Shown here: positions 13,087-59,414 of the stretch, piece after piece
How positions within the stretch are numbered: position 1 is the stretch's first letter
Layout: every line of letters starts with the position of its first letter
DNA from: a virus
Direction: 5' to 3' (one strand)
DNA: 64,000 nucleotides
IMG/VR virus record: IMGVR_UViG_3300020166_000010
Notes under the pieces: model-generated
What the model saw: the letters and a program-made list of their open reading frames with translations, nothing else
What the model was told of the DNA's origin: nothing
The model's database searches: none
Made by a program: the position numbers and the translations under genes

Positions 13087-14274
13087 TTACTCTACATCAG
13101 TAGCGTCGTCTGCTAATTCAGATTCTTTCATTTCGTTAATTTTAGTAGTATATGATTCGATCATTGAATTACAAGCTGCTTCATATGCTTCAGTTGAATA
13201 ATCTTCTTTCATTTCTTTAAGAGCTCCAGCTGCTAATGCCGCAACTAATGCTGCGTTTTCAGCCATGTAAGATTCTACAGTGTGAGAGTCATGCGCGTCT
13301 TCTTCCCATACTTTAGCTTCGTTTTTACAAGATTCATAAACTTCTTTTAACATTGCTGCTACTGCGATAGCAGCTGCAGGATTTTCGTTTACTTCTTCAG
13401 TCTCTTCAGATTCTTTAACTCCTAAAAAGTCTGCTGCTGCTGCTTTTAATTCGTCATAAGTATATTTACCAGTTAATGCGTCATCAAGAATTGTTCCTCC
13501 TTTTTTACCAATCGCGTATAATGATACGTGATCAAATCCTAACCAAGGTCCAACGAATTCGTCTGATGCTTTTAAACCTAAATCTGTAGATAATGTCCAT
13601 GATAAAGATCTTCTTCCTAAGAATTGGTCATTATAACCTAATTTACCAGCTTTAATATAACCTGATGCGTTTACAGCTTCTTCAATTGCTTCAGCTTCTT
13701 CGACTTTAAAAGTTTCTCCGTCGAATTCAAATTCATCTTCACCAGCTTCTTTAGCTTTTCTAACTGCGTCTCCGAAAGCATTACCTTCTTCAACCTCTTC
13801 AGTTTCTTCAACTTCTTCAGTTTCTTCAACCTCTTCAGATTCTTCAACTTTAAAAGTTTCTCCGTCAAATTCAAATTCAGTTTCACCAGCTTCTTTAGCT
13901 TTTCTAACTGCATCTCCGAAAGCATTACCTTCTTCAATTGCTTTAACTTTAACAGTAAATGTCTCTTCTGATTCTTCGATGTATTCTGCTAAGTCAGCAT
14001 CGTCCCATCCGTATTGAGAATCTGCTAATACTGTTTCAAGATCTTCTCTTTTACCTGTTAGTTCAACTTCTGGAAATCCTGAAGGACCGTCCTGGTCGAT
14101 AACTTCCATAGAAACTTTGTTTTTCTTAAGTAATTTTGCAAGACCTTTTGATTTTGGGTCAACTGCATCCATCACAACAGAAGCTTCCTGAACTTCTAAA
14201 TTGTTAATTTCTTCTTGATTGGCACTAGCTTGCTTTTCCGCAACGTACTGCTCAAACGATTTTAATTTAGCCAT
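13087..14274 (-). CDS. acidic internal head/prohead core-like protein with repeats
   Basis: Very Glu-rich; duplicated EEGNAFGDAVRKAKEAGE.EFEFDGETFKVEE; N-terminus MAKLKSFEQYVAE. Confidence 0.65.
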   Translation of the reverse strand: MAKLKSFEQYVAEKQASANQEEINNLEVQEASVVMDAVDPKSKGLAKLLKKNKVSMEVIDQDGPSGFPEVELTGKREDLETVLADSQYGWDDADLAEYIEESEETFTVKVKAIEEGNAFGDAVRKAKEAGETEFEFDGETFKVEESEEVEETEEVEETEEVEEGNAFGDAVRKAKEAGEDEFEFDGETFKVEEAEAIEEAVNASGYIKAGKLGYNDQFLGRRSLSWTLSTDLGLKASDEFVGPWLGFDHVSLYAIGKKGGTILDDALTGKYTYDELKAAAADFLGVKESEETEEVNENPAAAIAVAAMLKEVYESCKNEAKVWEEDAHDSHTVESYMAENAALVAALAAGALKEMKEDYSTEAYEAACNSMIESYTTKINEMKESELADDATDVE

Positions 14275-14323: not shown

Positions 14324-15355
14324 TTAAATGATAGTTTCTCTACCATCAATAACGTCCTGGTAATTAACTCTACCCTTAGATCTTTTAATTTGATCTTCGT
14401 TTTCTTTTAAGTTTATTTTATAAATAGGTCTAATATATTCTTCATTTAAATACGTCTTGAATTCCTGTGGCAGCTTTTCTCCATAAAAATCCTCATATAC
14501 TGCAACATAAACTCTAGCCATTTTATCTGCTGCCATTCCTGAAGCTGAATTGATTTCTGCAACCCAACAATCGCCAGATTTATCTACCATTAAATCAATT
14601 GACCAAAGACCAAGCTTTAATTTTTCTCTAACAGTTTTGCAGATATCAGTTATTTTATCCATAAAATCTAATTTACTTGTGTCTTGATCGACATACGTAA
14701 ATTCAGTTTTTTCACCTGATTTTTTATCTTTAATTTCATTTTCAGTTGCTGATACTCTTTCATGAACTAATACCACAGTATCATTTACTAATAAAATTCT
14801 AAACTCAGTATCTAAGTCTTTAGCCTCTGAATAGTTTTGAAATTCCCCTTTACTTTTTTCTAAGTCTTCATAAGTATCAAAAATCTCAATACCCATTCCG
14901 GAGTGTCCATCATCTGGTTTTGCAATTACAGGAAATTCTAAATCCTTCGCATCTTCTTTTTTATAAACAGCCTTTGGTATAAAATCTGAATCTTGAAACA
15001 TTTTATAAAAGTCAGTTTTATTACCGCTAATCTTCATAGCTTCTGGTAAATTATACATATCATCTTCTGATATACCGTACTTCTCTAAAAAATCTAAACC
15101 TTCTTTTGAGTTTCCACCATAATAAATAAGAGGTAGTTTTGAATTAACTTCCAAGTCTTTTCCATAATCTCCTTTAGCATAAAAGGCATTATATAGTTCT
15201 TTTAAACAAATTTCGTTTACGTCGCCGTAAATACTATTGTTTGTGCCTGTAAGGCCTTTTACCTCTTCTCCTGCTAATATAAAATTAACTTTTTTTAGAT
15301 AATCTTTATTAGACTTTTCAAGTAGAAATTTCTCAAATAGTTTTACTTTTTTCAT
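14324..15355 (-). CDS. ATP-grasp ligase, RimK-like
   Basis: FPVIAKP..G.SG.GI, EFRI, IDL and EINS motifs of ATP-grasp peptide ligases. Confidence 0.8.
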   Translation of the reverse strand: MKKVKLFEKFLLEKSNKDYLKKVNFILAGEEVKGLTGTNNSIYGDVNEICLKELYNAFYAKGDYGKDLEVNSKLPLIYYGGNSKEGLDFLEKYGISEDDMYNLPEAMKISGNKTDFYKMFQDSDFIPKAVYKKEDAKDLEFPVIAKPDDGHSGMGIEIFDTYEDLEKSKGEFQNYSEAKDLDTEFRILLVNDTVVLVHERVSATENEIKDKKSGEKTEFTYVDQDTSKLDFMDKITDICKTVREKLKLGLWSIDLMVDKSGDCWVAEINSASGMAADKMARVYVAVYEDFYGEKLPQEFKTYLNEEYIRPIYKINLKENEDQIKRSKGRVNYQDVIDGRETII

Positions 15356-16561: not shown

Positions 16562-17026
16562 TTAATCTTCTTTTGATTTGAATGGTAACTTTTTATCGTG
16601 ACCTCCGTCTCTAACTTCTTTAGCAACGTCGGAATCAGCACCGCCCCAAGTTCCTTTTCCTTTTTCTAAGAATGCATTTATTCTGGCATAGCCCCATCCT
16701 TCTTGTGTCATACCTGGATGGTGTCCACCGTTCCAAGCGTCCATTCCACGTCTCATTATGATTCTCAATAAAGGTACAGGTACTCCACTTTCTTTTGATT
16801 TGTTCTTGATTCCAGTTTCTACAGCCTTACCTTTAAGAGGTCCTCTGTCTCCTTTAGCCTTTTCTGCTTCATTAACAGATTCTCCTAAAACTGGCGTATT
16901 ATCATGACCACATTTGTGGCATATGTAAGGATCTTCACCGCCTTCGTCTAATCTCCAAGACCAGTCACACCCTTCGCAAGATACTTTATTTGCTGAAAAC
17001 TCTTCAAACAATTTAACGTATTTCAT
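16562..17026 (-). CDS. putative virion protein, Zn-ribbon plus DUF5824-like domain
   Basis: CxxC..CxxC; RRG..AW..GH.PG.TQ..W..AR.NAF motif; start MKYVKLFEEF. Confidence 0.65.
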   Translation of the reverse strand: MKYVKLFEEFSANKVSCEGCDWSWRLDEGGEDPYICHKCGHDNTPVLGESVNEAEKAKGDRGPLKGKAVETGIKNKSKESGVPVPLLRIIMRRGMDAWNGGHHPGMTQEGWGYARINAFLEKGKGTWGGADSDVAKEVRDGGHDKKLPFKSKED

Positions 17027-17996: not shown

Positions 17997-18233
17997 TTAT
18001 ATGTTATATAATGATTCTTTGATTTTGTTTATAAATCTTTCAGCGTCACACGCTTCGTCTAATGTAAGCACGTCAAGATCTTGAAATAATAGGCCAGTGC
18101 CTGTGTCTACAAATATGATGTCACCAATAATTTCAGCCTTAGCAACCTCATGAATTGTCATATCCTCTAGGTATATTATTTTAGAGGTGGTTAGAATTCT
18201 ATCCATTCTTTGTTGGGCATTCATCATTTGCAT
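17997..18233 (-). CDS. hypothetical early protein
   Basis: ORF behind an early promoter; start reassigned to MQMMNA. Confidence 0.6.
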   Translation of the reverse strand: MQMMNAQQRMDRILTTSKIIYLEDMTIHEVAKAEIIGDIIFVDTGTGLLFQDLDVLTLDEACDAERFINKIKESLYNI

Positions 18234-20155: not shown

Positions 20156-20413
20156 TTAATCCCCTGCCATTGTAACAAGTTCTTTTAATTTCATTAATTT
20201 ATCACACTTCTCATACTCTTCTAGTCCTTCAAAATACTCTACTAAAATATTAATAAACTCACTTCTCTGGCCAATACCATGGGGTATCTCGATTATATCG
20301 TTTCCTTCTTTGAAAACAACGAATCGATTCACGGTCTTTGTGAAGTTTCTTGTAATGGTGTAGTACGAAGATCTCATTAAAGAGTCTCTGTCTTCTCCTA
20401 GAATATCTTTCAT
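20156..20413 (-). CDS. small protein with C-terminal UVR-like motif (EEYEKC)
   Basis: YFEGLEEYEKCDKL; start reassigned to MKDILG. Confidence 0.65.
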   Translation of the reverse strand: MKDILGEDRDSLMRSSYYTITRNFTKTVNRFVVFKEGNDIIEIPHGIGQRSEFINILVEYFEGLEEYEKCDKLMKLKELVTMAGD

Positions 20414-20522
20414 TTGATTGTATTTATTTTTATGTCTTTCAACATGTAGTATATATTTAGTAGTACCCGGAGATACTACCCATACCATGAAAAAAAATAT
20501 AATGATATTATATTATCAAATG

Positions 20523-39317: not shown

Positions 39318-39908
39318 ATGATAAATAGTATAATGAATAGTATTACTAAGAAAATAGTTAGAGATTACATATATTTTAGAGAAACATTAGATGACGTAAA
39401 ATCTATTTCTAGTGATGCAGAAGGTGAATTCAGAGATGCGATGCACGATCATAATGAAGTTGCACTAACGGCTCTCACTCCGCCGGAAGGAGCACCTCCT
39501 ATTAAAAAAATTGATGAAGAACCTGTTGTAAAATTCGAAGACAGGCTCTTTAAAAAGCTTTTTAGAAAGATAGCAGTATTATGCCATCCAGATAAATTAG
39601 ATGATTCTTATTCTGAAAGAGAAGCTGTATTTTTAAAAAAATGTTATGAAGATCTCAATACTTCTAATCAAACTTATGATTGGGGATTATTGTTGAAGGT
39701 TGCCATGGAACTGGATGTTGAAATTCCGGAATTAAGCGATGAGCAATTTACTAATATTAATAATAATATAGAATCTATTAAAAAAACTATTAGTCAGTTT
39801 GAAGGATCTATGGCCTATAAATGGTATACCCTCTCCGACGCTGACGCCAAGAAAGGGTATTTAGAAAGCTGTGCTTCTATATTTATGAATAGTTTAAATA
39901 ATCGTTAA
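39318..39908 (+). CDS. J-domain-containing protein
   Basis: KKLFRKIAVLCHPDK J-domain core inside a coiled-coil protein. Confidence 0.7.
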   Translation: MINSIMNSITKKIVRDYIYFRETLDDVKSISSDAEGEFRDAMHDHNEVALTALTPPEGAPPIKKIDEEPVVKFEDRLFKKLFRKIAVLCHPDKLDDSYSEREAVFLKKCYEDLNTSNQTYDWGLLLKVAMELDVEIPELSDEQFTNINNNIESIKKTISQFEGSMAYKWYTLSDADAKKGYLESCASIFMNSLNNR

Positions 39909-40687
39909 ACGTCCCACTTGTCCGTTAGATGGCATCTTACATAAACCGGTGCTTGATATGCAATACCATTAGGATATTCTGATTGTAGTCTCGTATAAAA
40001 GTCTACATCTTCTGATGTGTCTTTAGATATAACATCCCTCCATTTTGTTGATAGATTAGTTTTGTGCATAAATAACCAAGGTGCCATTATCTGTCTGTTT
40101 GGTTTTACTTGAACTGGCTTCCATGCATCTGATAAACCTTCTATCTGAATTGCAGGCGTTTCGGAAGGATCTACTATAGCATTTCCATTAGCTAGCTCAG
40201 TTGAAACGGACTCATGGTCAAACCATGAAGTATTTATCCACCAATCTTTTTCTGGGTTTGCGTTAAAATATAAAAGAGATGTCATTGTCGCGTTTGGCAT
40301 TAAAAAATCATCTGAATCCATATACATTACAACGTGACCTGTTGCTGCAGCAGCGCCTAATCTTCTACCGAATCCTCTATAATATCTTCCTTTATCTTCT
40401 ATTTCCTCGTACATTTGAGGAGTATCTGTTCTATCGAAATATATTAGTTTTATATTTGGCGTGTTCTTGTGTGATCTATTATATAGTTGATGCGTTTTAT
40501 TACATCCATCTGCAACTATAATAAGTTCGCAATTTTTATATGTTTGGTTTTGAAAACTTTCGACTGCCCTGTGAAATTTACCGATAGGATCCTTTCTTGA
40601 ATTTTCGTAGTTTTCTAGGTTTACTTGCATCACTATAGATATTTTTATCTTGTTTAGTGATTCGAATATTTCTTTAAAGTTGCTCAT
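39905..40687 (-). CDS. GT2-family glycosyltransferase
   Basis: S..NQTY..ELIIVADG, YMDSDD and ED motifs. Confidence 0.85.
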   Translation of the reverse strand: MSNFKEIFESLNKIKISIVMQVNLENYENSRKDPIGKFHRAVESFQNQTYKNCELIIVADGCNKTHQLYNRSHKNTPNIKLIYFDRTDTPQMYEEIEDKGRYYRGFGRRLGAAAATGHVVMYMDSDDFLMPNATMTSLLYFNANPEKDWWINTSWFDHESVSTELANGNAIVDPSETPAIQIEGLSDAWKPVQVKPNRQIMAPWLFMHKTNLSTKWRDVISKDTSEDVDFYTRLQSEYPNGIAYQAPVYVRCHLTDKWDV

Positions 40688-41883
40688 TATTTATATAGGT
40701 TTGTTTTCCAATTGTATTCATGAGATAATTCATGTGTTCCTGGTTTAAATAAATTATCTATTAACTTTTTATATGTATCTACGACATCTGCGTTGGTTGA
40801 CAAATAACGGTCTAATACTTTTTTACTGTTTTTATTATATTGATCTAAATTTTTGTCATGCTCTTCTAGCGCTAATTTTAGCTGTTCTGCGCCTTGTGAT
40901 ATATTAAATCCTTCGTAATAATAGCCTGCATCTTTTATCATGTCTGCGTTGTGCACTATAGGGTACCCGAAATAAAGTGCGTCTAAGTATGCATAATTTA
41001 ATGGGTTTTCCCATTGGTGTGATAAGACTATATCTGTTTCACTTGCTAAGAACGTAGATACTGGGTACCTTCCAACATACTTTATTTTATTATCTGGAGA
41101 ATTAACTATATCGAAATTCTTGATCATCGCTAAATAGTATTTATTCTTTAGTAATTTTTTACCAGATCCTATGTATATTTGTTTAAATGAATTTTTACCA
41201 GATTCTCTAAAAACTCTTTCAGCGATCATGATTGTCATTAATGAATATTTAACGACATTTATATTTGGTTCCATTACAGATAGCTTTTTATCTTTAGCAT
41301 CCTTTGGAGTATATCCCGGAATCAATTTGCCGGCACGTTTTAGTAATTTATTAAATTCGTCAAGCGGCTCAGGGTCCCATATGAAAGGAACTGTTTTTAT
41401 CTGAGAATCCTCTTGTCTGTATATTGTTTTAAAGTATTCTATGTTTTGATATTCCTGTTGAGGTATTACCCAGGTTTCGTCGTGACCTCCGTCCCATGAA
41501 GGAACTGTTGAATCTGTAACCGTGTTAAACATTACTCTTTCCATATCGACTACGTAACTATTCCCACATTGGTATTTTACTACTTTTAAATTTGGATTTT
41601 TGCTTTTCATTAAAGATATCCTACTTGTAGGCAAAGAAGCACCTACCATAAACAATAAGTCTATCTCATTTTCCATCTCTGTAAATTTTGCGATTTTATA
41701 TTTATTATAATCCCAGTTTACTTTAGTTAAATCAGAAACATTCTTAGCTGCGTCTAAAATATAAACGTCAAGTCCTTCTATTTGGTTTAACATTTTAGAT
41801 AGGTTCAATGCATTTAATTTAATGCCGTTGATCCACATGCTTTCATATTCCTTTGTTAGAGATATTATAATTCCTACTTTCAT
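40687..41883 (-). CDS. DUF2827-family protein (probable GT-B glycosyltransferase)
   Basis: W.NGI..N, EPN.NVVK and SHQWENPLNY.YLDALY.GYP.VHN motifs. Confidence 0.75.
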   Translation of the reverse strand: MKVGIIISLTKEYESMWINGIKLNALNLSKMLNQIEGLDVYILDAAKNVSDLTKVNWDYNKYKIAKFTEMENEIDLLFMVGASLPTSRISLMKSKNPNLKVVKYQCGNSYVVDMERVMFNTVTDSTVPSWDGGHDETWVIPQQEYQNIEYFKTIYRQEDSQIKTVPFIWDPEPLDEFNKLLKRAGKLIPGYTPKDAKDKKLSVMEPNINVVKYSLMTIMIAERVFRESGKNSFKQIYIGSGKKLLKNKYYLAMIKNFDIVNSPDNKIKYVGRYPVSTFLASETDIVLSHQWENPLNYAYLDALYFGYPIVHNADMIKDAGYYYEGFNISQGAEQLKLALEEHDKNLDQYNKNSKKVLDRYLSTNADVVDTYKKLIDNLFKPGTHELSHEYNWKTNLYK

Positions 41884-48332: not shown

Positions 48333-48359
48333 TTATACTACTATTTTAGAGAAAGTTTA
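48333..48359 (-). promoter_or_regulatory. putative middle promoter TAAAC-N17-TATAA
   Basis: Motif upstream of the TS-fold gene. Confidence 0.6.
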
Positions 48360-50317
48360 TCTTCTCCTTTTTTATATGATATTGAATAAACTTTAGTTCC
48401 AATTGTCATTTTCTTATCTATGATTGCGTCTGCTAAAATATCTTCTACGTAATTTTGAACTGCTCTTTTTAATGGACGTGCTCCATATAGTGGATCATAT
48501 CCTTGTTCTGCTAGGAATGCCTTTGCAGTTTTATTGATTTTAATAGAATAACCTTGTTTTTCTAATCTAGTGATAACTCTATTTAATTCAATATCTACAA
48601 TCTCCAACATATTATCTTTACTTAAAGAATTAAATAAGATCATGTCGTCTAATCTATTTAAGAATTCAGGTGCAAACTTATTTTTAAGTTCCTTTCTGAT
48701 AATAGATTCTACGTGAGATTTCTGAGTTGCAATTGAGCTATTACTTTCAAATCCTATCCCTGCTCCAAAGTCTGAAACTTTTTTAGCACCTACATTTGAT
48801 GTCATTATAATAATAGTATTCGTGAAATCTACAGTTCTTCCTAGGGAATCTGTTAATCTACCCTCGTCTAATACTTGCAATAATGTATTGAATGTATCTG
48901 GATGCGCTTTTTCAACTTCATCAAATAATACAACCGAATAAGGTTTACGTCTTACTTGTTCCGTTAATTGTCCACCACTCTCGTGTCCAACATATCCAGG
49001 AGGAGATCCAATTAATTTAGAAACATTAAACTTTTCTTGATATTCTGACATATCAATTCTAATAATAGAATCTTCATCACCAAAATAATAGTTAGCTAAA
49101 GCTTTGACTGTTTCTGTTTTACCAACTCCAGTAGGTCCAATAAACATAAAAGAACCAATTGGTTTTTTAGATGAACTAACACCAGCTCTAGATCTTTTAA
49201 TTACTTTACATAATCCAGTAACTGCAGAATCTTGTCCGATTATCATCGACTTAAGTTTAGATTCCATGTCCGTGATAACTTTACTTTCGTCGTCTGTCAT
49301 TCTAGAGATTGGAATTCCAGTTGCGTCTGAAATAGTTTCAGCGATATCATCGTATGTTACAGGGCGTCTGTTAATTCTTAAATCACTTTGCCAATCCGAA
49401 ATAGTTTTATCAATAATATCTCTTTGTTTTATTTCAGCATCTCTGAATTTTGCTGCCTTTTCATAATCTTGTTCTTCAACTGCTGCTAGCTTTTGAGACT
49501 TAACTACCTCAATCTTTTTCTCAGCATCTTTAATATGTTCTGGCATCTTAACCTGAGATAGGTGTACTTTTGCACCGGCTTCATCCATTAAATCGATTGC
49601 TTTGTCTGGTAATTCTCTAGAAGTAACATATCTATCAGAAAGTTCAACACATGCTTTTAGTGCCTCATCTGTATATTCTACCGCGTGATAGTCTTCGTAA
49701 TTACCTTTAATTCTATTTAAGATCTCGATAGAATCACTAATTGAAGGTGGATCAATAAAAACTTCTTGGAATCTTCTAGTAAGTGCTCCATCAGTTTCTA
49801 TATTTTCTCTATATTCATCGAGAGTTGTTGCCCCAATACATTGTACCTGTCCTCTCGCAAGGGCTGGTTTTAAAATGTTACTAGCATCTAAAGAACCGCT
49901 AACTCCACCAGCTCCTACCATTGTGTGAATTTCATCAACAAAGATTATAATATCTGGATTAGCCTTTAGCTCATCAACAATCTTCTTCATTCTCTCTTCG
50001 AATTCTCCACGATATTTAGTACCTGCAACAATCGTCGACATATTTAAAGAGATTACTCTTTTACCTGTAAGAGTCATTGCTACTTTTTTATCAACAATTC
50101 TTTGCGCTATAGCCTCAACCAATGCAGTTTTACCAACACCAGGATCTCCTAATATAATTGGATTGTTCTTCTTTCTCCTAGAAAGGATTTGACAAATTCT
50201 ATAAACTTCTTTGTCTCTTCCTATAATAGGATCTAATTTACCCTCAGAGGCTGCAGCTGTTAAGTCTTCTCCGAATTGATCTATTAACGGTGTTTTTGCT
50301 TGTTTCTTATTTGCCAT
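48341..50317 (-). CDS. clpC: ClpC-type AAA+ unfoldase lacking the N-terminal Clp domain
   Basis: Two AAA modules (GDPGVGKT, GPTGVGKT), UVR M-domain (EEQDYEKAA) and IGF loop; the protein starts directly at TPLIDQFGEDLT. Confidence 0.92.
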   Translation of the reverse strand: MANKKQAKTPLIDQFGEDLTAAASEGKLDPIIGRDKEVYRICQILSRRKKNNPIILGDPGVGKTALVEAIAQRIVDKKVAMTLTGKRVISLNMSTIVAGTKYRGEFEERMKKIVDELKANPDIIIFVDEIHTMVGAGGVSGSLDASNILKPALARGQVQCIGATTLDEYRENIETDGALTRRFQEVFIDPPSISDSIEILNRIKGNYEDYHAVEYTDEALKACVELSDRYVTSRELPDKAIDLMDEAGAKVHLSQVKMPEHIKDAEKKIEVVKSQKLAAVEEQDYEKAAKFRDAEIKQRDIIDKTISDWQSDLRINRRPVTYDDIAETISDATGIPISRMTDDESKVITDMESKLKSMIIGQDSAVTGLCKVIKRSRAGVSSSKKPIGSFMFIGPTGVGKTETVKALANYYFGDEDSIIRIDMSEYQEKFNVSKLIGSPPGYVGHESGGQLTEQVRRKPYSVVLFDEVEKAHPDTFNTLLQVLDEGRLTDSLGRTVDFTNTIIIMTSNVGAKKVSDFGAGIGFESNSSIATQKSHVESIIRKELKNKFAPEFLNRLDDMILFNSLSKDNMLEIVDIELNRVITRLEKQGYSIKINKTAKAFLAEQGYDPLYGARPLKRAVQNYVEDILADAIIDKKMTIGTKVYSISYKKGEDKLSLK

Positions 50318-50341
50318 GTTCTTAATTAGTATTTATAGTTA

Positions 50342-50368
50342 TTATAACGAATAAACGGGATTTGTTTA
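50342..50368 (-). promoter_or_regulatory. putative middle promoter TAAAC-N17-TATAA
   Basis: Motif upstream of clpC. Confidence 0.6.
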
Positions 50369-51815: not shown

Positions 51816-52265
51816 TTACCTGCGGAACTTGGGTATTTGCGGCTTTGGTACCTTGGGTGTTGGACTCCCTCCAAGCTTGGGTACTTGCGGCGCGGGTGGA
51901 TTGGGTTTGGGTCTCTGAGCCTTTGGGGAGCCTGGAGCGCCTGGGCTCTCGGGTTGCCCCTTGCCTGGTTGGCCGTCAGGGTTCATAGTACTCTGCATCT
52001 TGTCGCTTGCCTTACCCATGGCATAGTTCCACGCTTTGTCTTTAGCCCACTCTTTTCCGCGACTCCACTTATCTCCTACCCAGTCAGAAAATCCGCGCTG
52101 GTCAGCTTCCCCAGCTGGGGGCTTAGGAGGTGGTACAGCTGCTGCCTTGGGCCTGTCTATCGAGGGCTTCCCTAGGGAGCTCTTTTGATTGGCCTGAGTG
52201 TTAACCCCCTGGGTGTTACTCTGTACCTGTAGGTTTAATTTAGCTTGTGGGCTCTGGTTGATCAT
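51816..52265 (-). CDS. Pro/Gln/Lys-rich disordered protein with a central Trp-rich helix
   Basis: 149-aa ORF with coherent low-complexity composition. Confidence 0.55.
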   Translation of the reverse strand: MINQSPQAKLNLQVQSNTQGVNTQANQKSSLGKPSIDRPKAAAVPPPKPPAGEADQRGFSDWVGDKWSRGKEWAKDKAWNYAMGKASDKMQSTMNPDGQPGKGQPESPGAPGSPKAQRPKPNPPAPQVPKLGGSPTPKVPKPQIPKFRR

Positions 52266-52380: not shown

Positions 52381-52505
52381 ACTCTATTTGGTTTTAATTA
52401 AGTTTCTTTATATGGCGCCCTCGGAGTGTTCACTCTGGGAACATTATCTAGGGGTCACCTATTAGTTACTATAGGTTATATATAAGTGACCCACCAGGGT
52501 GACCC

Positions 52506-52964
52506 TTATAGGGCCTCTACCTCAACTGGCTGGTTCATAACAAAAGCTTTACTTGCCCAGGTTTTACTATTAACTGCCTTATACTGGTCACTATTATATA
52601 GGTTCGTGTTATACCATAATCCGTTAATAGTTCCAACTTCTAAGCCAGCCATTATAGCTTCATCCATTAGGAGGATCTTATTTCCTTTTTTCGCGAACAC
52701 TGTAAAGTAATTATCAGATCCGAATGGCTTATACTCTACTGTATGTAAGGCTCCTTTCTTATATGCGTTTAATACTATTGAAGGATTATCATATAATCTC
52801 TGATCGTCAAAATCTCTAGCATCGTTACAGGTCATATAACCAGCTCTACACTTTGTTATAAAACGGAATTTACCCGGTTGGGCTTCGTAGTAGTCGTTCT
52901 TAATAATGTTGATAGCCTGGATTCCAGTAACGTTGATAATGTCTTTGTTTTTTAATTCGTGCAT
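52506..52964 (-). CDS. hypothetical early protein
   Basis: ORF behind the leftward arm of a divergent early promoter. Confidence 0.75.
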   Translation of the reverse strand: MHELKNKDIINVTGIQAINIIKNDYYEAQPGKFRFITKCRAGYMTCNDARDFDDQRLYDNPSIVLNAYKKGALHTVEYKPFGSDNYFTVFAKKGNKILLMDEAIMAGLEVGTINGLWYNTNLYNSDQYKAVNSKTWASKAFVMNQPVEVEAL

Positions 52965-52994
52965 GGTGTGGTGTTTAAGTGTTAGTATTAATTA

Positions 52995-53140
52995 TATAGT
53001 AAATATAACACTTATATTTGATATAAAAAAACTTTTGTGCATTTATTTTTAGTTGAGGTCCTATTTATAATGATTATAAATTAGGAAAGTTTTCACCCTA
53101 GATTTTTTTATATGAAACTAATTGCTTATATTTACTATAT
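52995..53140. promoter_or_regulatory. divergent early promoters sharing one palindromic operator
   Basis: Operator 53063-53081; leftward box 53000-53007 (55 bp away) and rightward box 53127-53134 (45 bp away). This is the strand-switch point. Confidence 0.75.
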
Positions 53141-53161
53141 AATAATTAAAACAACTACTAC

Positions 53162-53515
53162 ATGAATATCAAAATCACCGCAGACGAAGAAAGAGTTATC
53201 AAATATGCACTCGCAGACTATACTAATAACTTAGTTGGTAAGGGAATTCTATATAATACCGCTGTTGGTATCTTAAATAAGATTAACGATGCTGGTATTG
53301 TGAAGGCAGCGAGAACACCTAAGGTGCTGGTTCAGAAGCAATATATGTTCTCATTCGAGAATGGCGGATGGAACACAGTGTGGGCTAAAACACTACCTGG
53401 TGCTAAGCGTCAAGCCTTATTAGAGTATAAGGATTCTGACTTAAATGTTCGATTAGATAGTGTTCACTTAGCTACTAAGAAAGGATTAGATTCGGCAATG
53501 TCCTTATTCTACTAG
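53162..53515 (+). CDS. hypothetical early protein
   Basis: ORF behind an early promoter. Confidence 0.75.
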   Translation: MNIKITADEERVIKYALADYTNNLVGKGILYNTAVGILNKINDAGIVKAARTPKVLVQKQYMFSFENGGWNTVWAKTLPGAKRQALLEYKDSDLNVRLDSVHLATKKGLDSAMSLFY

Positions 53516-53524
53516 GGAACCCTT

Positions 53525-53600
53525 ATTTATAATCATTATAAATTAAGAAAGTTTTCACCCTAGATTTTTTTATATCAATAATTAGTGTTATATTTAACTA
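53525..53600 (+). promoter_or_regulatory. early promoter with palindromic operator
   Basis: Operator 53525-53543; TATATTTA at 53589-53596. Confidence 0.75.
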
Positions 53601-53620
53601 TAATTAAAAACGTAATCGTT

Positions 53621-53833
53621 ATGACAAATTTCAAAAACTTATCAATTTACATCTTAGTGATTTTAGCTGGTGTAGCTATTGCTGCCTTTATTATCCCAGC
53701 TGGTATCAAACTATTTTTTAGTGGTTTACTATGGATGATGAATAATCCTGCAACAGGGTTGGTAATCTCTATTACATTCTTAATCGGATGTTTTGTTGGT
53801 AATTTTGAAACAAAGTCTAATAAATCAGTATAA
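53621..53833 (+). CDS. small membrane protein
   Basis: Two hydrophobic segments; start reassigned to MTNFKN. Confidence 0.65.
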   Translation: MTNFKNLSIYILVILAGVAIAAFIIPAGIKLFFSGLLWMMNNPATGLVISITFLIGCFVGNFETKSNKSV

Positions 53834-53853
53834 TAATAAATCAAACGAACATT

Positions 53854-54990
53854 ATGAGCATTCAAACTTTATCACAAACCGCGGTAGCAACAAGTAAACA
53901 AGAGAGCATCAACGCTCAATCTTTACGCCGCACCCTTCCTTTCCGAGACATTACAATGATCGACGAGACAACCATCGAGTATAAAGGAACTCGTATCCCA
54001 ATTACCAAGCAAGCTTTTAAATCCTTACTATCTCTAGTAGGTATGAGCCAGTCGTTCGCAGACAAATTCTCTAAGCTGTTTAACAAAGAGACTAAAGCGC
54101 AATTCATTAATACTATGAAAAACGCAATGGCATCTAACGCAGGTAAACTTAGCAACGTTACATTGGTTCTAAATCCAATTTCGAAAGCTGTGATCTTATT
54201 TACTAAAGAAGACAAGCTGCAAATCTCAAACGATCAAATGATCCAAGTTGCAGAGAACATGATCTCAGATAGTTCAATGGGAGTATCTAGATGGACTACG
54301 GATCCAACAACAGGTATTATCACAATCGACGCTCATAACCCTAAGGCTGAGTTTGAGATCTTAGGATTAAGTGATGAGGTCTTTACTGGAGGAGTTACAT
54401 TCCGTAATAGTCCACTAAGAGGATTTGAAGTTATGCCATACGTAAATCGCCAATGGTGTACTAATGGTCTAACAACAGCTATGGCACAAGAAGCATACCA
54501 ACTACATTCTTTAGATAATAAGAGTATGGAAAGCTTTTTCGAAAACATGCAAGGTTTAAGACGTAATAACTACGCTCCTGAAGGATTTGCTGATCGAGTT
54601 CGCCAAGCTAACAACACACCTGCTTCGCTACATGAAATGTCTTTTGCACATAACTTAATTTCTAAGCATGCTGGTGAAAGAGCAGAACAATGGGTACCTC
54701 TACAAGAGAACCTCAACGAATATAATAAAGCCGGATTTGATAAATTAACTAACGATCAAATGAAGATGGCTAAAACTAACCAATCGCTTTGGTCAGTAAT
54801 TAATGGAGTTACACACTTTAGTAGTCATGGTAAAGGTATCATCGACACTAACATGCAACCTCATAATGAAGCTGATATCCAAACACGTATTGGAAACCTA
54901 TTAGGCAAAAAGAGTTTTGATCACGAAAACACTATGCCAAACCCTTTTAGTAAGGAACAGCTTCAACAGACTGGAGCTCTTCTGAACTAA
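53854..54990 (+). CDS. DUF932-like protein
   Basis: G..F.NS..R.WC.NG motif and a C-terminal SLW..INGVT helix typical of DUF932/DUF945 phage-plasmid proteins. Confidence 0.6.
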   Translation: MSIQTLSQTAVATSKQESINAQSLRRTLPFRDITMIDETTIEYKGTRIPITKQAFKSLLSLVGMSQSFADKFSKLFNKETKAQFINTMKNAMASNAGKLSNVTLVLNPISKAVILFTKEDKLQISNDQMIQVAENMISDSSMGVSRWTTDPTTGIITIDAHNPKAEFEILGLSDEVFTGGVTFRNSPLRGFEVMPYVNRQWCTNGLTTAMAQEAYQLHSLDNKSMESFFENMQGLRRNNYAPEGFADRVRQANNTPASLHEMSFAHNLISKHAGERAEQWVPLQENLNEYNKAGFDKLTNDQMKMAKTNQSLWSVINGVTHFSSHGKGIIDTNMQPHNEADIQTRIGNLLGKKSFDHENTMPNPFSKEQLQQTGALLN

Positions 54991-55018
54991 TGTTTAGTTT
55001 GATTTTAATTATTATTAC

Positions 55019-55049
55019 AAAAGGCAGGCGTTGTTTCCTGCCTTTTTTT
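55019..55049 (+). terminator. intrinsic terminator
   Basis: AAAAGGCAGG-N8-CCTGCCTTTTTTT. Confidence 0.8.
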
Positions 55050-55073
55050 ATACACCTCGGTCAGGGGGCCCTT

Positions 55074-55150
55074 ATTTATAATGATTATAAATTACAAAAG
55101 TTTTCACCCTAGATTTTTTTATATCAATAAAAAGTGTTATATTTAATTAT
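55074..55150 (+). promoter_or_regulatory. early promoter with palindromic operator
   Basis: Operator 55074-55092; TATATTTA at 55138-55145. Confidence 0.75.
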
Positions 55151-55169
55151 AATTAAAAAACAAACAAAC

Positions 55170-55454
55170 ATGACTTATTCAAAAATCGTTTCCGCTATCA
55201 ACAATGCTAACCTTTCAGTAGAAGAACTTTCTAAGCTGAATTCTTTCGTGGTTGATACTATTAAATTAAAACGCAAAATGAACGGCGCTGTTATTAAGCA
55301 ATCTCTATCTAGAGGTTCAATGGTAATGGTTGATCACCCTGCACACAAGAACTCTACGTTCGAGGTATTAGAAGTTCGTAGAACTAAAGCAACTATCAAA
55401 GATAGTCAAGGTCGCAGAATGAATGCACCTCTATCTATGTTGATCCCAATGTAA
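55170..55454 (+). CDS. small protein with C-terminal SH3-like beta barrel (putative)
   Basis: ORF with start reassigned to MTYSKI. Confidence 0.7.
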   Translation: MTYSKIVSAINNANLSVEELSKLNSFVVDTIKLKRKMNGAVIKQSLSRGSMVMVDHPAHKNSTFEVLEVRRTKATIKDSQGRRMNAPLSMLIPM

Positions 55455-55474
55455 ATTGTCAACAACCCGATTGC

Positions 55475-55548
55475 GGACTTATAGCTCAGCTGGTTAGAGC
55501 AGCGCACTCATAATGCGAAGGTCACAGGTTCGAACCCTGTTAGGTCCA
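55475..55548 (+). tRNA. tRNA with CAU anticodon, probably tRNA-Ile2 (elongator Met not excluded)
   Basis: GGACTTA/TAGGTCC acceptor stem, AGCTCAG..GG..AGAGC D-arm, CTCATAA anticodon loop and GTTCGAA T-loop. Confidence 0.9.
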
Positions 55549-55553
55549 CCCAG

Positions 55554-55625
55554 AATTGTTAATAACTTTTGAAAATAAGTTCACTAAAGTTTTCATATCC
55601 CACTAAAAAGGTTTATATTTACATA
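55554..55625 (+). promoter_or_regulatory. early-type promoter with alternative upstream element TTGTTAATAACTTTT
   Basis: TATATTTA at 55614-55621; same architecture at 62437-62505. Confidence 0.55.
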
Positions 55626-55645
55626 TAACATTAAAACACCACGTA

Positions 55646-56731
55646 ATGAATCACTACACTATTAAGAAAACCAAAAACACATATACCCTAACTGAGGTAC
55701 AATCAGGAACAACTCTAAACATTGGATCCACACATCCTAAATTTAACTATGTCGCTAAAGAAGATTCTAAAGGATCTCGTATTATTAATATCAATGGCGA
55801 CAAGTTCACCTCATCTAAAGATTATAGAGGTCACTATAAGAAGTCTACCCAAGCTCAAAAGCCAGCTAAGCCTCTTAATATTACCCTAACCAAGTTAGAT
55901 GATTTAAATATTAATGCCAACTTATTCGTACCTATAGAGACCAATACAGTCTTTGACAAATTCGCATCTACTGCAGGTGGTATTATGCCAGGTACAAACA
56001 TCATGGCGGCCGGAGCCCCAGGTGTTGGTAAAACTACGGTCCTATTAGATCTATTAAGTACTGCACATAAGAGTGGTAAGAAGGTCCTATTCATCTCAGC
56101 TGAAATGTCTCAGATAGATATGGCCCGCTACTTACAACGCTTTCCTCACTGGGGTCAGTTGCCGATCTTATTCCTAGCAGACTATGTGGATGAATGTCCA
56201 AAGACTGTAATCGAACAAGTCTTAAATGGAGGTTGGGATTTGGTCCTAACTGATAGCTACACTGAAGTTAACGACACCGTAAAAGAAGCTTGTAACCTAA
56301 CCCGTGGTAAAGTTGAGAAATGGTTCCTAGACCTAATGATCTCAAATAACAAAGGTGTTAACAAGCCCGGAATCTACACAACCTTTATTACCATCTTGCA
56401 ATTATCTAAAGGAGGTCAATTCGTCGGATCTAACAAACTAAAACACATGACCACGAGCATGATGAGCTTGGACTGGGAAGGTGGAGAAAACGCAGGTCGT
56501 AGATACATGGAATTCTCTAAAAACCGAGTAGGTGCAGTAAACAAAAAACTTTACTTTTCTTTAGAAGGCGGAGTAAGCTTTGACGAAGCCCGATACGCTA
56601 GGGATCTATTTAACGACGAGTTGGTATCTACAGAACGCAAGCAATTAGCGACGGAAGCAGATGCCTTCGACAAGTTATTCGGATTCAGTGAAGTAGATGC
56701 CGAAGACTTAGAAGCTCATATCGAAATATAA
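55646..56731 (+). CDS. RadA/Sms-like RecA-fold ATPase (no Zn finger or Lon domain)
   Basis: GGIMPG..GAPGVGKTT, VLFISAE, DS, L.HM and KNRVG (cf. RadA KNRFG). Confidence 0.75.
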   Translation: MNHYTIKKTKNTYTLTEVQSGTTLNIGSTHPKFNYVAKEDSKGSRIININGDKFTSSKDYRGHYKKSTQAQKPAKPLNITLTKLDDLNINANLFVPIETNTVFDKFASTAGGIMPGTNIMAAGAPGVGKTTVLLDLLSTAHKSGKKVLFISAEMSQIDMARYLQRFPHWGQLPILFLADYVDECPKTVIEQVLNGGWDLVLTDSYTEVNDTVKEACNLTRGKVEKWFLDLMISNNKGVNKPGIYTTFITILQLSKGGQFVGSNKLKHMTTSMMSLDWEGGENAGRRYMEFSKNRVGAVNKKLYFSLEGGVSFDEARYARDLFNDELVSTERKQLATEADAFDKLFGFSEVDAEDLEAHIEI

Positions 56732-56757
56732 GGGTCCTATTAGGATTCCTAAGCCTT

Positions 56758-56786
56758 CCTCCCGGTTATGTGGTGTTTCCGGGAGG
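56758..56786. other. 8-bp GC hairpin whose 13-nt loop is antisense to the upstream gene's start region
   Basis: CCTCCCGG-TTATGTGGTGTTT-CCGGGAGG. Confidence 0.65.
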
Positions 56787-57347
56787 TTTGGTGTATTTGG
56801 AGCATTGGGGCACCTGTATATCCTCGGACCGGTCATGGTAAAAAACGCTCCTCCGGTGTGAGCCAATTGGCGTTGGGGTTTAAGGTTCCTACAGGGACTT
56901 TACTTGGATGCTATATTTAGGGATTACTTGGGAATACCCTTGGATGGCTAGGAGAATCCTTACAAGCCTATCTAGCTTTCTTATATCTCTATTAGGTTAT
57001 TATAGGAGGATGGAGTTTTAAGATCTTATATACCTATACCTATATCTCTATTACTAGGATCCGTATTACTTGGATAGTTGTTTGCCTTATCTTGCTTGTC
57101 TCTTCTTAGATCTCTTATATCTTTCTTTCTTTTCTTATTCTTCTTGTTGGGATTCTTATTCTTATCTCTTCTTTGTTATCTATTATGATTGATTCTTTTG
57201 GTCACGTGCGAGGGTCCATTTTACAAGAATCTTTGCACGCTCGGGTGGTTTGTAGTGTGGTCGGTCAAAAGGATTGATATTCTACAGGTTTTTAGGATCG
57301 GGTTCTTAAGGAGTGAGCCTATATATACCTCTTCTTTTTGTCACCTT

Positions 57348-57425
57348 ATTTGGAATGATTATAAATTACAAAAGTTTTCACCCTAGATTTTTTTATATCA
57401 ATAATTAGTGTTATATTTACTATAT
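57348..57425 (+). promoter_or_regulatory. early promoter with variant palindromic operator
   Basis: ATTTGGAATGATTATAAAT at 57348-57366; TATATTTA at 57412-57419. Confidence 0.72.
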
Positions 57426-57447
57426 AATAATTAAAACAACTACACTC

Positions 57448-57825
57448 ATGCCTTACATTACTAAAGATCAAGTTTCTCAAAAAAGAAAAGAATTAAAAGC
57501 TGCCTTACCTGACTATAAGCTATCTATTACTACTGAACATTATTCTGGTATTAAGGTTGCTATCATGGCAGGTCCTACTGATTTTGGAACTGAATACTCT
57601 CAACTAAATCCTCATCATGATTATCGAGGAGAAACTTGGAACCGCTATACTGAAGAATACGATTCTAACCCTCCTATCCAAGATGTTCTAGATATTATTA
57701 TGCCTATTCTAAATGAAGGCAAAGGAGAGGGTCATGAAGATGGAGATTACGGTATGATTCCTGATTATTATACTTGGGTTCATATTGGTAAATGGGATAA
57801 AGCTTATGAAATTAAAACTAAATAA
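57448..57825 (+). CDS. early protein, LPD29-like (tentative)
   Basis: RKELKAALP.YKLSI..YS.I.V..GP pattern. Confidence 0.6.
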   Translation: MPYITKDQVSQKRKELKAALPDYKLSITTEHYSGIKVAIMAGPTDFGTEYSQLNPHHDYRGETWNRYTEEYDSNPPIQDVLDIIMPILNEGKGEGHEDGDYGMIPDYYTWVHIGKWDKAYEIKTK

Positions 57826-57826
57826 T

Positions 57827-58054
57827 ATGACAAACGAAAACACAGGATATCTTCCACAAATCGCATTCAATCTAGTAGATGAAAATAGAACTACACTTGA
57901 GTATTTTATTAATAAACATATTGAAGAGTTTGGAAAGTTTTCATCCTCTGATCTAATGTGGATCTTTGATGCTTCTGCTAGTATTAAAAGAACCCGAGCT
58001 CAGGAAACTAATGAATGGAATGACAGCCTTAATATTGAATCTTATACACTTTAA
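57827..58054 (+). CDS. hypothetical protein
   Basis: ORF with start reassigned to MTNENT. Confidence 0.6.
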   Translation: MTNENTGYLPQIAFNLVDENRTTLEYFINKHIEEFGKFSSSDLMWIFDASASIKRTRAQETNEWNDSLNIESYTL

Positions 58055-58058
58055 AATT

Positions 58059-58346
58059 ATGAAAACAAAAGAATTAATTTGGAAATTAGAATCTACTATC
58101 TATTTATTAGATGAGATTGTTTTAAACTATCGATCTGAAGATTGGAATATGTTAAAAGCTCGCATTGCTGATCATATTGGAGTCACTAAAGGCTCGGTTA
58201 ATATGGCTATAGGAAATCTAAAGTGGATTTTATCTGATGGCTCTGAAGGCCTCTCTGCTTATACTGTTCGTCAGGAGGAAGCGGTTAGACTTACTTTAGA
58301 GAAATATGAATTAAGTAAGCAAAAACTTTTAATGATACTATCTTAA
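58059..58346 (+). CDS. hypothetical protein, possible HTH
   Basis: RIADHIGVTKGSVNMAI helix-turn-helix-like segment. Confidence 0.6.
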   Translation: MKTKELIWKLESTIYLLDEIVLNYRSEDWNMLKARIADHIGVTKGSVNMAIGNLKWILSDGSEGLSAYTVRQEEAVRLTLEKYELSKQKLLMILS

Positions 58347-58355
58347 TTATTAAAC

Positions 58356-59414
58356 ATGAAAATTAAATTTATTATAATCGCATTTTTTGTAGCAGCTACA
58401 TGTAATGCACAGAAAACCCTTGTATCTGACATCACAGATGTAGATCTAAGTAATACAGAGCAATCAGGATATGTTAATTGGGATTTCACCAATAATACAA
58501 CCGGATATGCCTGGACCTGGGGAGCACCTGGAATGCTAGTCTATGGAGATGCGCCTGAAATGTGCTTGGACATAGAAGCTGAAATTAAAAACATATCTCA
58601 CGTATGGGGAGCTGGTATCTCTATTGGAGTAGATGAATCCTCAACAAACAGTGAACTAAAGTATAATGGCATTAATAACTATTATTTATCAGTAGAAGAC
58701 GATGTTGTTGGATTATTTAGAGGAACCAATAACACACAAGAAGATTTCATGGCTGATACACTAGCATACGTCGGTGTGACAATTGATCAAACTGAATGGT
58801 ATAAATTAAGATTAAAAATAGAAGCAGATACGATATATGGATATGTTAACGATGTTCTATACATTAACCATAAGGTAGATAGTATACAAAAGAACGGTAA
58901 GTTTGCTATAGTATCTTCTAATAGTGAAAATACATATAAGAATATAAAAGCAAGATATCACAAAGATCCATACTATATTAGTAGTGATACTATTGTAGAA
59001 TTTGTAAGTGATGTTAATCACCCAGAATGGAATAACTTACCTGTCACTCGATTAGATAGTGTTGAAACTGTAGTAGAAGCCGATGGATTAGATCATTTCA
59101 TAAGCCATTATATACAATATAAAGAATCTGAATCAATTAATATAGGAGATGATGATTGTGATTGCATTTGCCCAGCAGTAACTACCCTATCGATATATCC
59201 AAATCCAGTATCTGAATATATTAACGTAAGTATACAACAGCCTGAAGGAACACTCAAGGTTTATAGCATGCATGGATCATCTGTTAAATCCTATGATTTA
59301 AAATATGGAATTAATAGAATAGATATGACAAGATATCCAATAGGACATTATTTATTCAAAGTAGAATACGAAGGAAGAAAGGCATTAATAGAAAAGATAA
59401 TAGTAACTCATTAA
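58356..59414 (+). CDS. secreted protein with signal peptide, beta-sandwich domain and T9SS type-A C-terminal sorting domain
   Basis: MKIKFIIIAFFVAATCNA/Q signal peptide; C-terminal IYPNP..I.V..VYS..G..G.YLFKV..KII. Confidence 0.85.
   Translation: MKIKFIIIAFFVAATCNAQKTLVSDITDVDLSNTEQSGYVNWDFTNNTTGYAWTWGAPGMLVYGDAPEMCLDIEAEIKNISHVWGAGISIGVDESSTNSELKYNGINNYYLSVEDDVVGLFRGTNNTQEDFMADTLAYVGVTIDQTEWYKLRLKIEADTIYGYVNDVLYINHKVDSIQKNGKFAIVSSNSENTYKNIKARYHKDPYYISSDTIVEFVSDVNHPEWNNLPVTRLDSVETVVEADGLDHFISHYIQYKESESINIGDDDCDCICPAVTTLSIYPNPVSEYINVSIQQPEGTLKVYSMHGSSVKSYDLKYGINRIDMTRYPIGHYLFKVEYEGRKALIEKIIVTH

Follow-up and report, generated by a model that had tools for sequence, protein, structure and literature searches.

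The DNA analysed here is a 64,000-nt stretch of the IMG/VR virus record IMGVR_UViG_3300020166_000010 (hereafter the window, whose numbering is used for all positions), in which 74 open reading frames (ORFs) are listed. The subject of this analysis is the mRNA of a DUF932-like gene of the window, in which a segment lying between the stop codon and the transcription terminator is complementary to the leader of the same mRNA, up to and including the first base of the start codon. The gene is the second cistron of a compact arrangement that consists of a promoter module (53565-53613), a 70-aa ORF, a 20-nt spacer, the gene itself (ATG at 53854-53856 and TAA at 54988-54990), a 3' untranslated region (3' UTR) of ~30 nt, and a terminator. 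The complementarity is conserved among related phages, and the long-range helix to which it gives rise dominates folding models of the transcript. The features on which the argument depends are listed below; all of them lie on the plus strand.

53565..53613, +: one of the repeated promoter modules (TATATTTA box and TATAAT-like box), upstream of the 70-aa ORF
53621..53833, +: 70-aa ORF, hydrophobic and membrane-like (from the ORF list), ending within the distal 5' arm (stop codon TAA, 53831-53833)
53805..53834, +: promoter-like site TTGAAA-18-TATAAT (TATAAT at 53829-53834), 11 of 12 matches in a sigma-70 scan
53828..53837, +: distal 5' arm, 9-10 bp with 55008-55018
53838..53854, +: proximal 5' arm, i.e., the entire short leader to the A of the start codon, 17 bp with 54988-55005 (RNAduplex)
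53854..54990, +: gene of the 378-aa DUF932-like protein (from the ORF list and fold comparison)
54988..55005, +: proximal 3' arm (anti-leader), beginning at the first base of the stop codon (RNAduplex)
55008..55018, +: distal 3' arm, pairing with 53828-53837
~55023..55049, +: intrinsic terminator, a GC-rich hairpin with a 7-T run (sequence reading and scan)

Complementarity, predicted folding and conservation

According to RNAduplex, the proximal arms form a helix of 17 bp that includes the G-U pair G53847-U54995, a bulged A54996, and a pair between the A of AUG and the U of UAA; the duplex of the arms has an energy of -17.7 to -20.1 kcal/mol, varying with the flanks. The original prediction, which had placed this helix of 17 bp with one G-U pair and one bulge at 53838-53854 and 54988-55005, was right to the base. 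It had further proposed a pairing of TAATAATA (53831-53838) with TATTATTA (55010-55017), which is found to be one of two equivalent registers in a TAA-type repeat; the outermost five pairs of this distal helix are poorly conserved. Because the TAATAATA arm coincides with the end of the 70-aa ORF and with a -10-like box, the distal 5' arm should be present as RNA only in read-through transcripts from upstream. The description of the start-proximal region as a 5' UTR needs qualification, since these 20 nt are an intercistronic spacer that follows the conserved 70-aa ORF, and the region carries a promoter-like box. A 40-aa ORF at 54990-55112, with its start in a TAATG overlap, was rejected as a gene because it traverses the terminator and because its ATG is missing in three related lineages (L003, L038 and L040).

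Partition functions were computed for a transcript of 1.2 kb with the proximal start and for one of 1.4 kb from the upstream module, and the long-range pairs reach probabilities of 0.7-1.0 in these models, with 0.8-0.99 for the distal pairs in the model of the long transcript. The claim that the full transcript folds back onto its own start is thereby borne out at the level of the predicted ensemble, in which the long-range helix is dominant; the start-occluding structure is predicted at about -20 kcal/mol in the longer transcript versus -12.5 kcal/mol in the shorter one. In a series of 3'-truncated transcripts, the leader remains 72-87% unpaired through position 54985 and is 13% unpaired once the RNA includes 55006, which suggests that the coding region offers the leader no competitor and that the last ~20 nt would act as a switch. 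This modelled pattern fits a leader that is open while the mRNA is nascent and closed when it is finished.

Dinucleotide shuffles of either arm give a z-score of -5.7, and none of 3000 shuffles is as strong as the observed energy. When the starts and stops of all 74 ORFs of the window are combined, the cognate pair ranks second among 5476 combinations, a single one of the 5402 non-cognate pairs being as good, and it is the top partner in both its own row and its own column of the matrix. The pairing thus exceeds what composition-matched shuffles produce. Elsewhere in the window, cognate matches of start and stop (20156-20488, 51816-52265, 52506-52964, and 39318-39908) are weak or involve the start of the next gene.

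Scans of viral and metagenome contigs furnished 110 loci, with homologues at 48-99% protein identity. In nine distinct lineages (72-100% protein identity), the 3' arm immediately follows the stop codon and precedes a terminator, and the cognate duplexes amount to -14 to -20 kcal/mol; the terminator is present behind the 3' arm in 9/9 of these pairing lineages, and its stems differ yet stay complementary. Full-transcript folds return a mean pair probability between leader and own 3' arm of 0.58-0.87 in the nine lineages and in L047 and L049 (~70% identity), and a probability of ~0 in all relatives at or below 69% identity, so that the anti-leader appears to have arisen within a single clade (70% identity or more). 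Pairing is accordingly conserved in 11 lineages of related phages, within a clade in which four-fold degenerate sites have reached saturation (45-50% identity). With 78-93% identity to the window, the 3' arm therefore appears to be under selection for something. In all pairing lineages the helix reaches positions -2 to +1 of the start; the A of AUG and the U of UAA are paired in six of them, and elsewhere the helix ends 1-4 nt from both codons. The 3' arm of L047 and L049 begins 9-10 nt past the stop codon.

A strict column count, using a MAFFT alignment and the structure of the window, finds 90% canonical cells, as against 28-52% when the partner is slid. Since insertions and deletions move the helix register between lineages, such a count misses register shifts that an energy-based test is able to follow. 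When the 3' arms of six lineages are permuted, the cognate combination totals -97.4 kcal/mol versus a mean of -83.7 kcal/mol, and its total is at least matched by 6 of the 720 permutations; with only the start-proximal helix considered, this fraction is 0.022. The sister pair L003 and L040 provides a concrete example: their coding sequences are 96.9% identical, yet their start-proximal arms differ on both sides, each matching its own partner (U-A versus A-U at -4; T/A versus C/G at -1 and stop position 3), and swapping the arms costs 2-4.6 kcal/mol. Moreover, a C inserted in the distal 5' arm of L038 pairs with a G that is found only in the 3' arm of L038.

Different structures occupy the corresponding position in other relatives. 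At or below 69% identity, the anti-leader is replaced by a conserved stem-loop of ~55 nt with the outer arms GGATT..AAAC and GTTT..AATCC, followed by a terminator; it was seen just past the stop codon in L052 (2509-2570), L055, L060, L064, L073, and L082, and it has no match in Rfam. In some of the lineages at ~70% identity (L043, L044, L045, L050, L051, and L057), the first 25 nt past the stop codon read AAAACATTATGTTTGTTAT, which resembles a leader-type and an anti-leader-type sequence joined as a local hairpin. The leader is predicted to be open in the two of these lineages that were folded (L043 and L050), and the AAAACATTATGTTTGTTAT flank may represent a decayed or self-sequestered anti-leader.

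Proposed mechanism and competing explanations

The preferred reading, which is given about an even chance of being right, is that a fold-back of the 3' UTR onto the leader closes, in cis, the initiation region of the completed mRNA and thereby limits its translation. The segment 54988-55018 between stop codon and terminator would serve as an anti-leader acting in cis; once transcribed, it would pair with the leader of its own mRNA at 53838-53854, and farther upstream in read-through RNA, so as to bury positions -16 to +1 of the initiation region in a helix of 17-27 bp. The closed form should accept few new ribosomes, since hosts of the kind considered here skip Shine-Dalgarno pairing and need an open, A-rich leader. 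Each mRNA would consequently be translated mainly while nascent or soon after, the protein yield would be capped, and the long duplex might also be a substrate for a double-strand RNase. From the models and the comparative data, we infer that the helix forms in vivo and represses translation, with a possible effect on mRNA decay.

The host of the phage is probably a member of the Bacteroidota, because a neighbouring gene has a Por_Secre_tail sorting domain at its end and because the leaders are A-rich and devoid of Shine-Dalgarno motifs. For Flavobacterium johnsoniae, secondary structure and an A at position -3 are known to modulate initiation (PMC6847099). The leader of the DUF932-like gene is A-rich and without a GGAG-type motif, as are other leaders of the window, and it carries an A at position -3 that is paired in the closed form.

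Several points weigh against this reading. The 5' end of the transcript is a prediction only, and a long-range helix spanning 1.1 kb may form slowly in vivo on an mRNA under translation. Two of the four lineages at ~70% identity (L043 and L050) do not show the pairing. Most of the comparative signal is conservation, and the 5' arm would be conserved anyway as a promoter-like box and an A-rich leader. The covariation that the original prediction had put forward as a check is suggested by the arm-swap permutations and by the pair L003/L040, but a strict column count reveals one column pair only with a double change (C-G to U-A, in L038 and L003), which column shuffles equal; covariation of the arms thus seems real but modest, on top of strong conservation. 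In addition, G-U pairs (4-5 events) are in no clear excess over C-A mismatches (~3) and therefore do not single out the sense strand of the RNA, for which the duplex energies of sense and antisense are likewise undecisive. The distal arm, for its part, cannot separate RNA pairing from convergent promoters, because the complement of TATAAT is a TATAAT-type box on the other strand.

The same helix could instead play a positive role, either guarding the 5' end and the region of the terminator against RNases, in the manner of hbs, or bringing start and stop codons together in a closed loop with re-initiation. The frequent pairing of the A of AUG with the U of UAA, or the close approach of the helix to both codons elsewhere, is in keeping with this possibility, and a ribosome arriving at the stop codon would have to melt the proximal 3' arm and would thus free the leader. 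As for re-initiation across such a helix, we know of no precedent. The sequence offers nothing that separates a positive role from repression, and the juxtaposition of start and stop is not universal, given the displaced 3' arm in L047 and L049. A protective interaction has its precedent in the hbs mRNA (PMC5737220); on balance, a positive role is considered unlikely.

At the level of DNA, the 3' arm could be an inverted copy of the promoter and leader that is kept as a convergent antisense promoter, as a protein-binding site, or by gene conversion, the RNA pairing being incidental. The reverse complement of the 3' arm does resemble the tails of the promoter modules (pair I9 has 76% complementarity to 55144-55176), the 3' arm of L034, L003, and L040 contains a perfect TATAAT on the minus strand, and the lack of a clear excess of G-U over C-A described above is compatible with this explanation. 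However, the part that is conserved and co-varies extends over the transcribed leader as far as the start codon, a stretch that would be dispensable for a promoter (the fraction of 0.022 and the pair L003/L040). The sigma-70 scan detects no minus-strand site or antisense promoter at the 3' arm, where the -35 position would sit in the terminator hairpin; the repeat formed by the arms is single-copy in the window; and arms of 25 nt at a distance of 1.1 kb would hardly lend themselves to gene conversion. In all loci, the gene has the same orientation and the same synteny with the nearby RadA-like gene, with no sign of inversion or mobility. Maintenance at the DNA level is therefore held to be improbable, whereas an origin of the 3' arm by inverted duplication of its own promoter and leader is plausible from the sequence and concerns how the arm arose, not how it is maintained. 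A mobile cassette or invertible segment was rejected on the same grounds of single copy in the window, fixed orientation, and constant synteny with the RadA-like gene, and no transposase or invertase domain was found in the eight nearby ORFs scanned.

Action in trans is a further possibility, in which the 3' arm and terminator would work as a 3'-UTR-derived small RNA, or the mRNA on another mRNA, against A-rich leaders of the phage or its host. In the usual layout of bacterial small RNAs, a U-rich single strand leads into a terminator hairpin, and the 3' arm with its terminator shares this layout. Two further leaders suit the 3' arm as well, namely those of the genes at 55170 (-14.9 kcal/mol) and 53162 (-14.7 kcal/mol), and intermolecular pairing has also been considered for icaR (PMC3868564). 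Nevertheless, the arm's own leader is the best partner by ~4 kcal/mol, and the arms co-vary with the cognate leader, which makes a trans role distinctly improbable. The RNA data, which consist of assembled contigs, gave no sign of a processed fragment. Finally, the match could be fortuitous, given a leader rich in A, a 3' region rich in T, and a genomic G+C content of 36%, yet this is very unlikely: both arms are of low complexity and the original prediction had many genes to choose among, but neither the shuffles (0/3000) nor the non-cognate pairs (1/5402) reproduce the match, and the pairing has been retained in 11 lineages despite saturated synonymous sites.

Transcription, genomic setting and the encoded protein

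The DUF932-like gene lies within a block of short rightward genes, each of which stands behind a copy of a repeated promoter module of ~130 nt. The direct-repeat families D1/D2 of this module have copies at 53103, 53565, 55114, 55590, and 57388, and in the relatives the TATATTTA box of the module is found 263-285 nt upstream of the DUF932-like homologue. A homologous ORF of 64-70 aa precedes the gene in most of the checked lineages at 70% identity or more, with 20-50 nt to the ATG. The module at 53565..53613 is the probable start of a bicistronic transcript of the 70-aa ORF and the DUF932-like gene. Besides, the gene is probably served by a promoter of its own, with a leader of ~13 nt, because a GTATAATAA..AAATC box is kept in every relative regardless of context, including those in which it is intergenic, in which the upstream gene is different, or in which the fold-back is missing.

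The gene is present in the RNA libraries of four studies, whose data are assembled contigs that indicate gene presence only and whose uncovered parts carry no meaning. Contigs of three studies start at 53848-53863, and one contig (53623-54326) bridges the 70-aa ORF and the gene; taken together, they give a weak hint that both transcript forms exist and that a 5' end is nearby. The bridging contig, from run X18, represents an environmental variant that lacks 53844-53847, so that the AAAC repeat of the leader is shortened, and carries the substitution T53825C.

Full-length modules of ~130 nt lie at 53052-53181, 53514-53643, 55063-55192, and 57337-57466, ahead of many small genes; the module is also seen in upstream regions at 728-949, 17997-18233, 60362, 62530, and 63080, and a copy at 52986-53031 points leftward. 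Its parts are a 19-bp palindrome, a TTTTCACCCT box, the TATATTTA box, and a TATAAT-like box. A second class of upstream motif consists of ATATATAG, 1-3 nt, and TATAAA, and is located ~15-25 nt before the starts of large leftward genes (2436-4286, 14324-15355, 16562-17026, 40687-41883, 1102-2370, and 13087-14274); it is probably a late promoter type. Ahead of the ClpC-like gene at 48341-50317 stands GTTATAATAACTATAAATAC (~50318-50350), and a near-identical box precedes the DUF932-like gene in L038, which suggests a common third promoter class (GTATAATAA..TAAAT) for these two genes. A tRNA-Met (CAU) at 55475-55550, between the gene 55170-55454 and the RadA-like gene, is the only match in an Rfam scan of 52500-58500. 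RNA-library contigs heap up on it, many of which come from tRNAs of other organisms, as judged by their loose ends.

The source virus is a large uncultured marine phage: a 175-kb viral contig matches the window at 99% identity, and the stretch was recovered from many marine metagenome runs. The search for close relatives among named phages returned none, the DNA matches being confined to the tRNA and the single protein match standing at 23%.

The assignment of the protein to DUF932 in the original prediction holds for the fold and falls short for the sequence. The Pfam family DUF932 (PF06067) is matched at 12.7 bits (E = 0.11), under the gathering threshold of 23, and by 4 of 18 homologues, the best with E = 0.0023; phrog_1362, a family without known function, is matched with E = 7e-7. 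An AlphaFold model of the 378-aa protein has a predicted local distance difference test (pLDDT) score of 76, and a Foldseek comparison of the model with BFVD retrieves several phage proteins named DUF932 or TIGR03299, with E = 2e-10 to 1e-3 and template-modelling (TM) scores of up to 0.62. The PDB contains no match to the protein, either by sequence profile or by Foldseek of the model. The early role in DNA processing or anti-defence put forward in the original prediction thus finds no support.

The RadA-like sibling and known systems

A nearby RadA-like ATPase gene was said to have the same design, which proves to be true. Its elements are as follows.

55632..55646, +: leader of the RadA-like ATPase gene, 14 bp with the loop of its own 3' hairpin, -18.7 to -20.3 kcal/mol
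56758..56786, +: 3' hairpin of the RadA-like gene, with a 13-nt loop (56766-56778) antisense to its own leader

As in the DUF932-like gene, the 3' UTR carries a complement of the short leader of its own gene (-13 to +1); the RadA-like gene lies two genes from the DUF932-like one, among the same promoter modules. The two differ in architecture, since the RadA-like element presents a 13-nt hairpin loop for a kissing-type contact, whereas the DUF932-like anti-leader is a linear segment that forms an extended duplex. They also differ in depth of conservation: the RadA-like element is kept down to 56% identity, and the DUF932-like one only in the clade at 70% identity or more. In relatives down to 56% protein identity, the ACACCAC core of the RadA-like leader is retained, and the stems of the hairpin vary freely while loop and leader are kept; in one clade, a one-base insertion in the leader is matched by a one-base insertion in the loop. 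That two architectures are aimed at the same target in neighbouring genes makes a functional reading of the DUF932-like element more likely.

Two neighbouring genes of one phage would thus embody the same idea in two forms, of which the DUF932-like one joins start and stop codons in a single helix. If the fold-back works as proposed, it would be a cap or timer of protein output per transcript that needs no regulator, and a simple design rule for expression in Bacteroidota. A wider generalisation, regarded as rather improbable, is that phages of Shine-Dalgarno-independent hosts generally build "self-timing" mRNAs with an anti-leader in the 3' UTR, either linear or displayed in the loop of the terminator; the start would be shut as soon as the transcript is finished, and could be re-opened by nothing but a ribosome that terminates at the stop codon next to it. 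Such an mRNA would, if this were true, be a bacterial analogue of closed-loop translation, in which the yield per mRNA is set without a protein regulator.

In the early transcripts of phage T4 that are long, the starts of the lysozyme gene e and of soc are hidden in a hairpin, and they are free in transcripts from a proximal promoter. The likeness is that two promoters probably serve one phage gene and that the stronger start-occluding structure belongs to the longer transcript. In T4, the structure is a local hairpin whose upstream arm is absent from the short transcript; in the present case, the partner lies 1.1 kb downstream, and both transcripts hold the 17-bp core.

Pairing between both ends of one mRNA has been documented in few bacterial cases, namely icaR, hbs, and hok, and no description of it was found in the literature for phage mRNAs or for Shine-Dalgarno-independent initiators. 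In Bacillus subtilis hbs (PMC5737220), the 5'/3'-UTR interaction is tied to the action of RNase Y/J1 and to mRNA stability, and not to occlusion of the start; what is shared is that both ends of one bacterial mRNA base-pair.

The original prediction called the fold-back hok-like, a comparison that is apt in a loose sense only. In the hok mRNA of plasmid R1, long-distance 5'/3' pairing (the tac/fbi stem) keeps the full-length mRNA inert, and a long-distance stem of this kind in the full-length mRNA is indeed common to both. However, the hok stem acts indirectly by stabilising a local hairpin against the Shine-Dalgarno sequence, a metastable 5' hairpin blocks co-transcriptional translation, the mRNA is activated by 3' trimming, and an antisense RNA and a toxin are involved (PMC9841398); none of these features was seen here. 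In the DUF932-like mRNA, the occlusion would be direct, and, in place of a metastable hairpin, the models leave 72-87% of the leader unpaired in every truncated transcript. Likewise, hok has a small toxin ORF with an overlapping leader ORF, in contrast to the 378-aa DUF932-like protein.

The icaR mRNA of Staphylococcus aureus is closer, and is the closest documented system: a segment of its 3' UTR pairs with its own initiation region ~1 kb upstream, which blocks the initiation complex and makes a substrate for RNase III (PMC3868564). Both mRNAs have a 3' UTR with complementarity to the initiation region of the same molecule, which in the DUF932-like mRNA is beyond chance. In icaR, a 3' UTR of 390 nt places a short UCCCCUG motif on the Shine-Dalgarno sequence, whereas here a 3' UTR of ~60 nt provides 17-27 bp that run from stop to start. 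The icaR contact is thus an anti-Shine-Dalgarno/Shine-Dalgarno pairing; the DUF932-like leader has no Shine-Dalgarno sequence, is carried by a phage, and is known from sequence and models. The proposed fold-back of the DUF932-like mRNA would be distinguished by its phage carrier, by its setting without a Shine-Dalgarno sequence, and by a predicted helix that touches start and stop codon alike.

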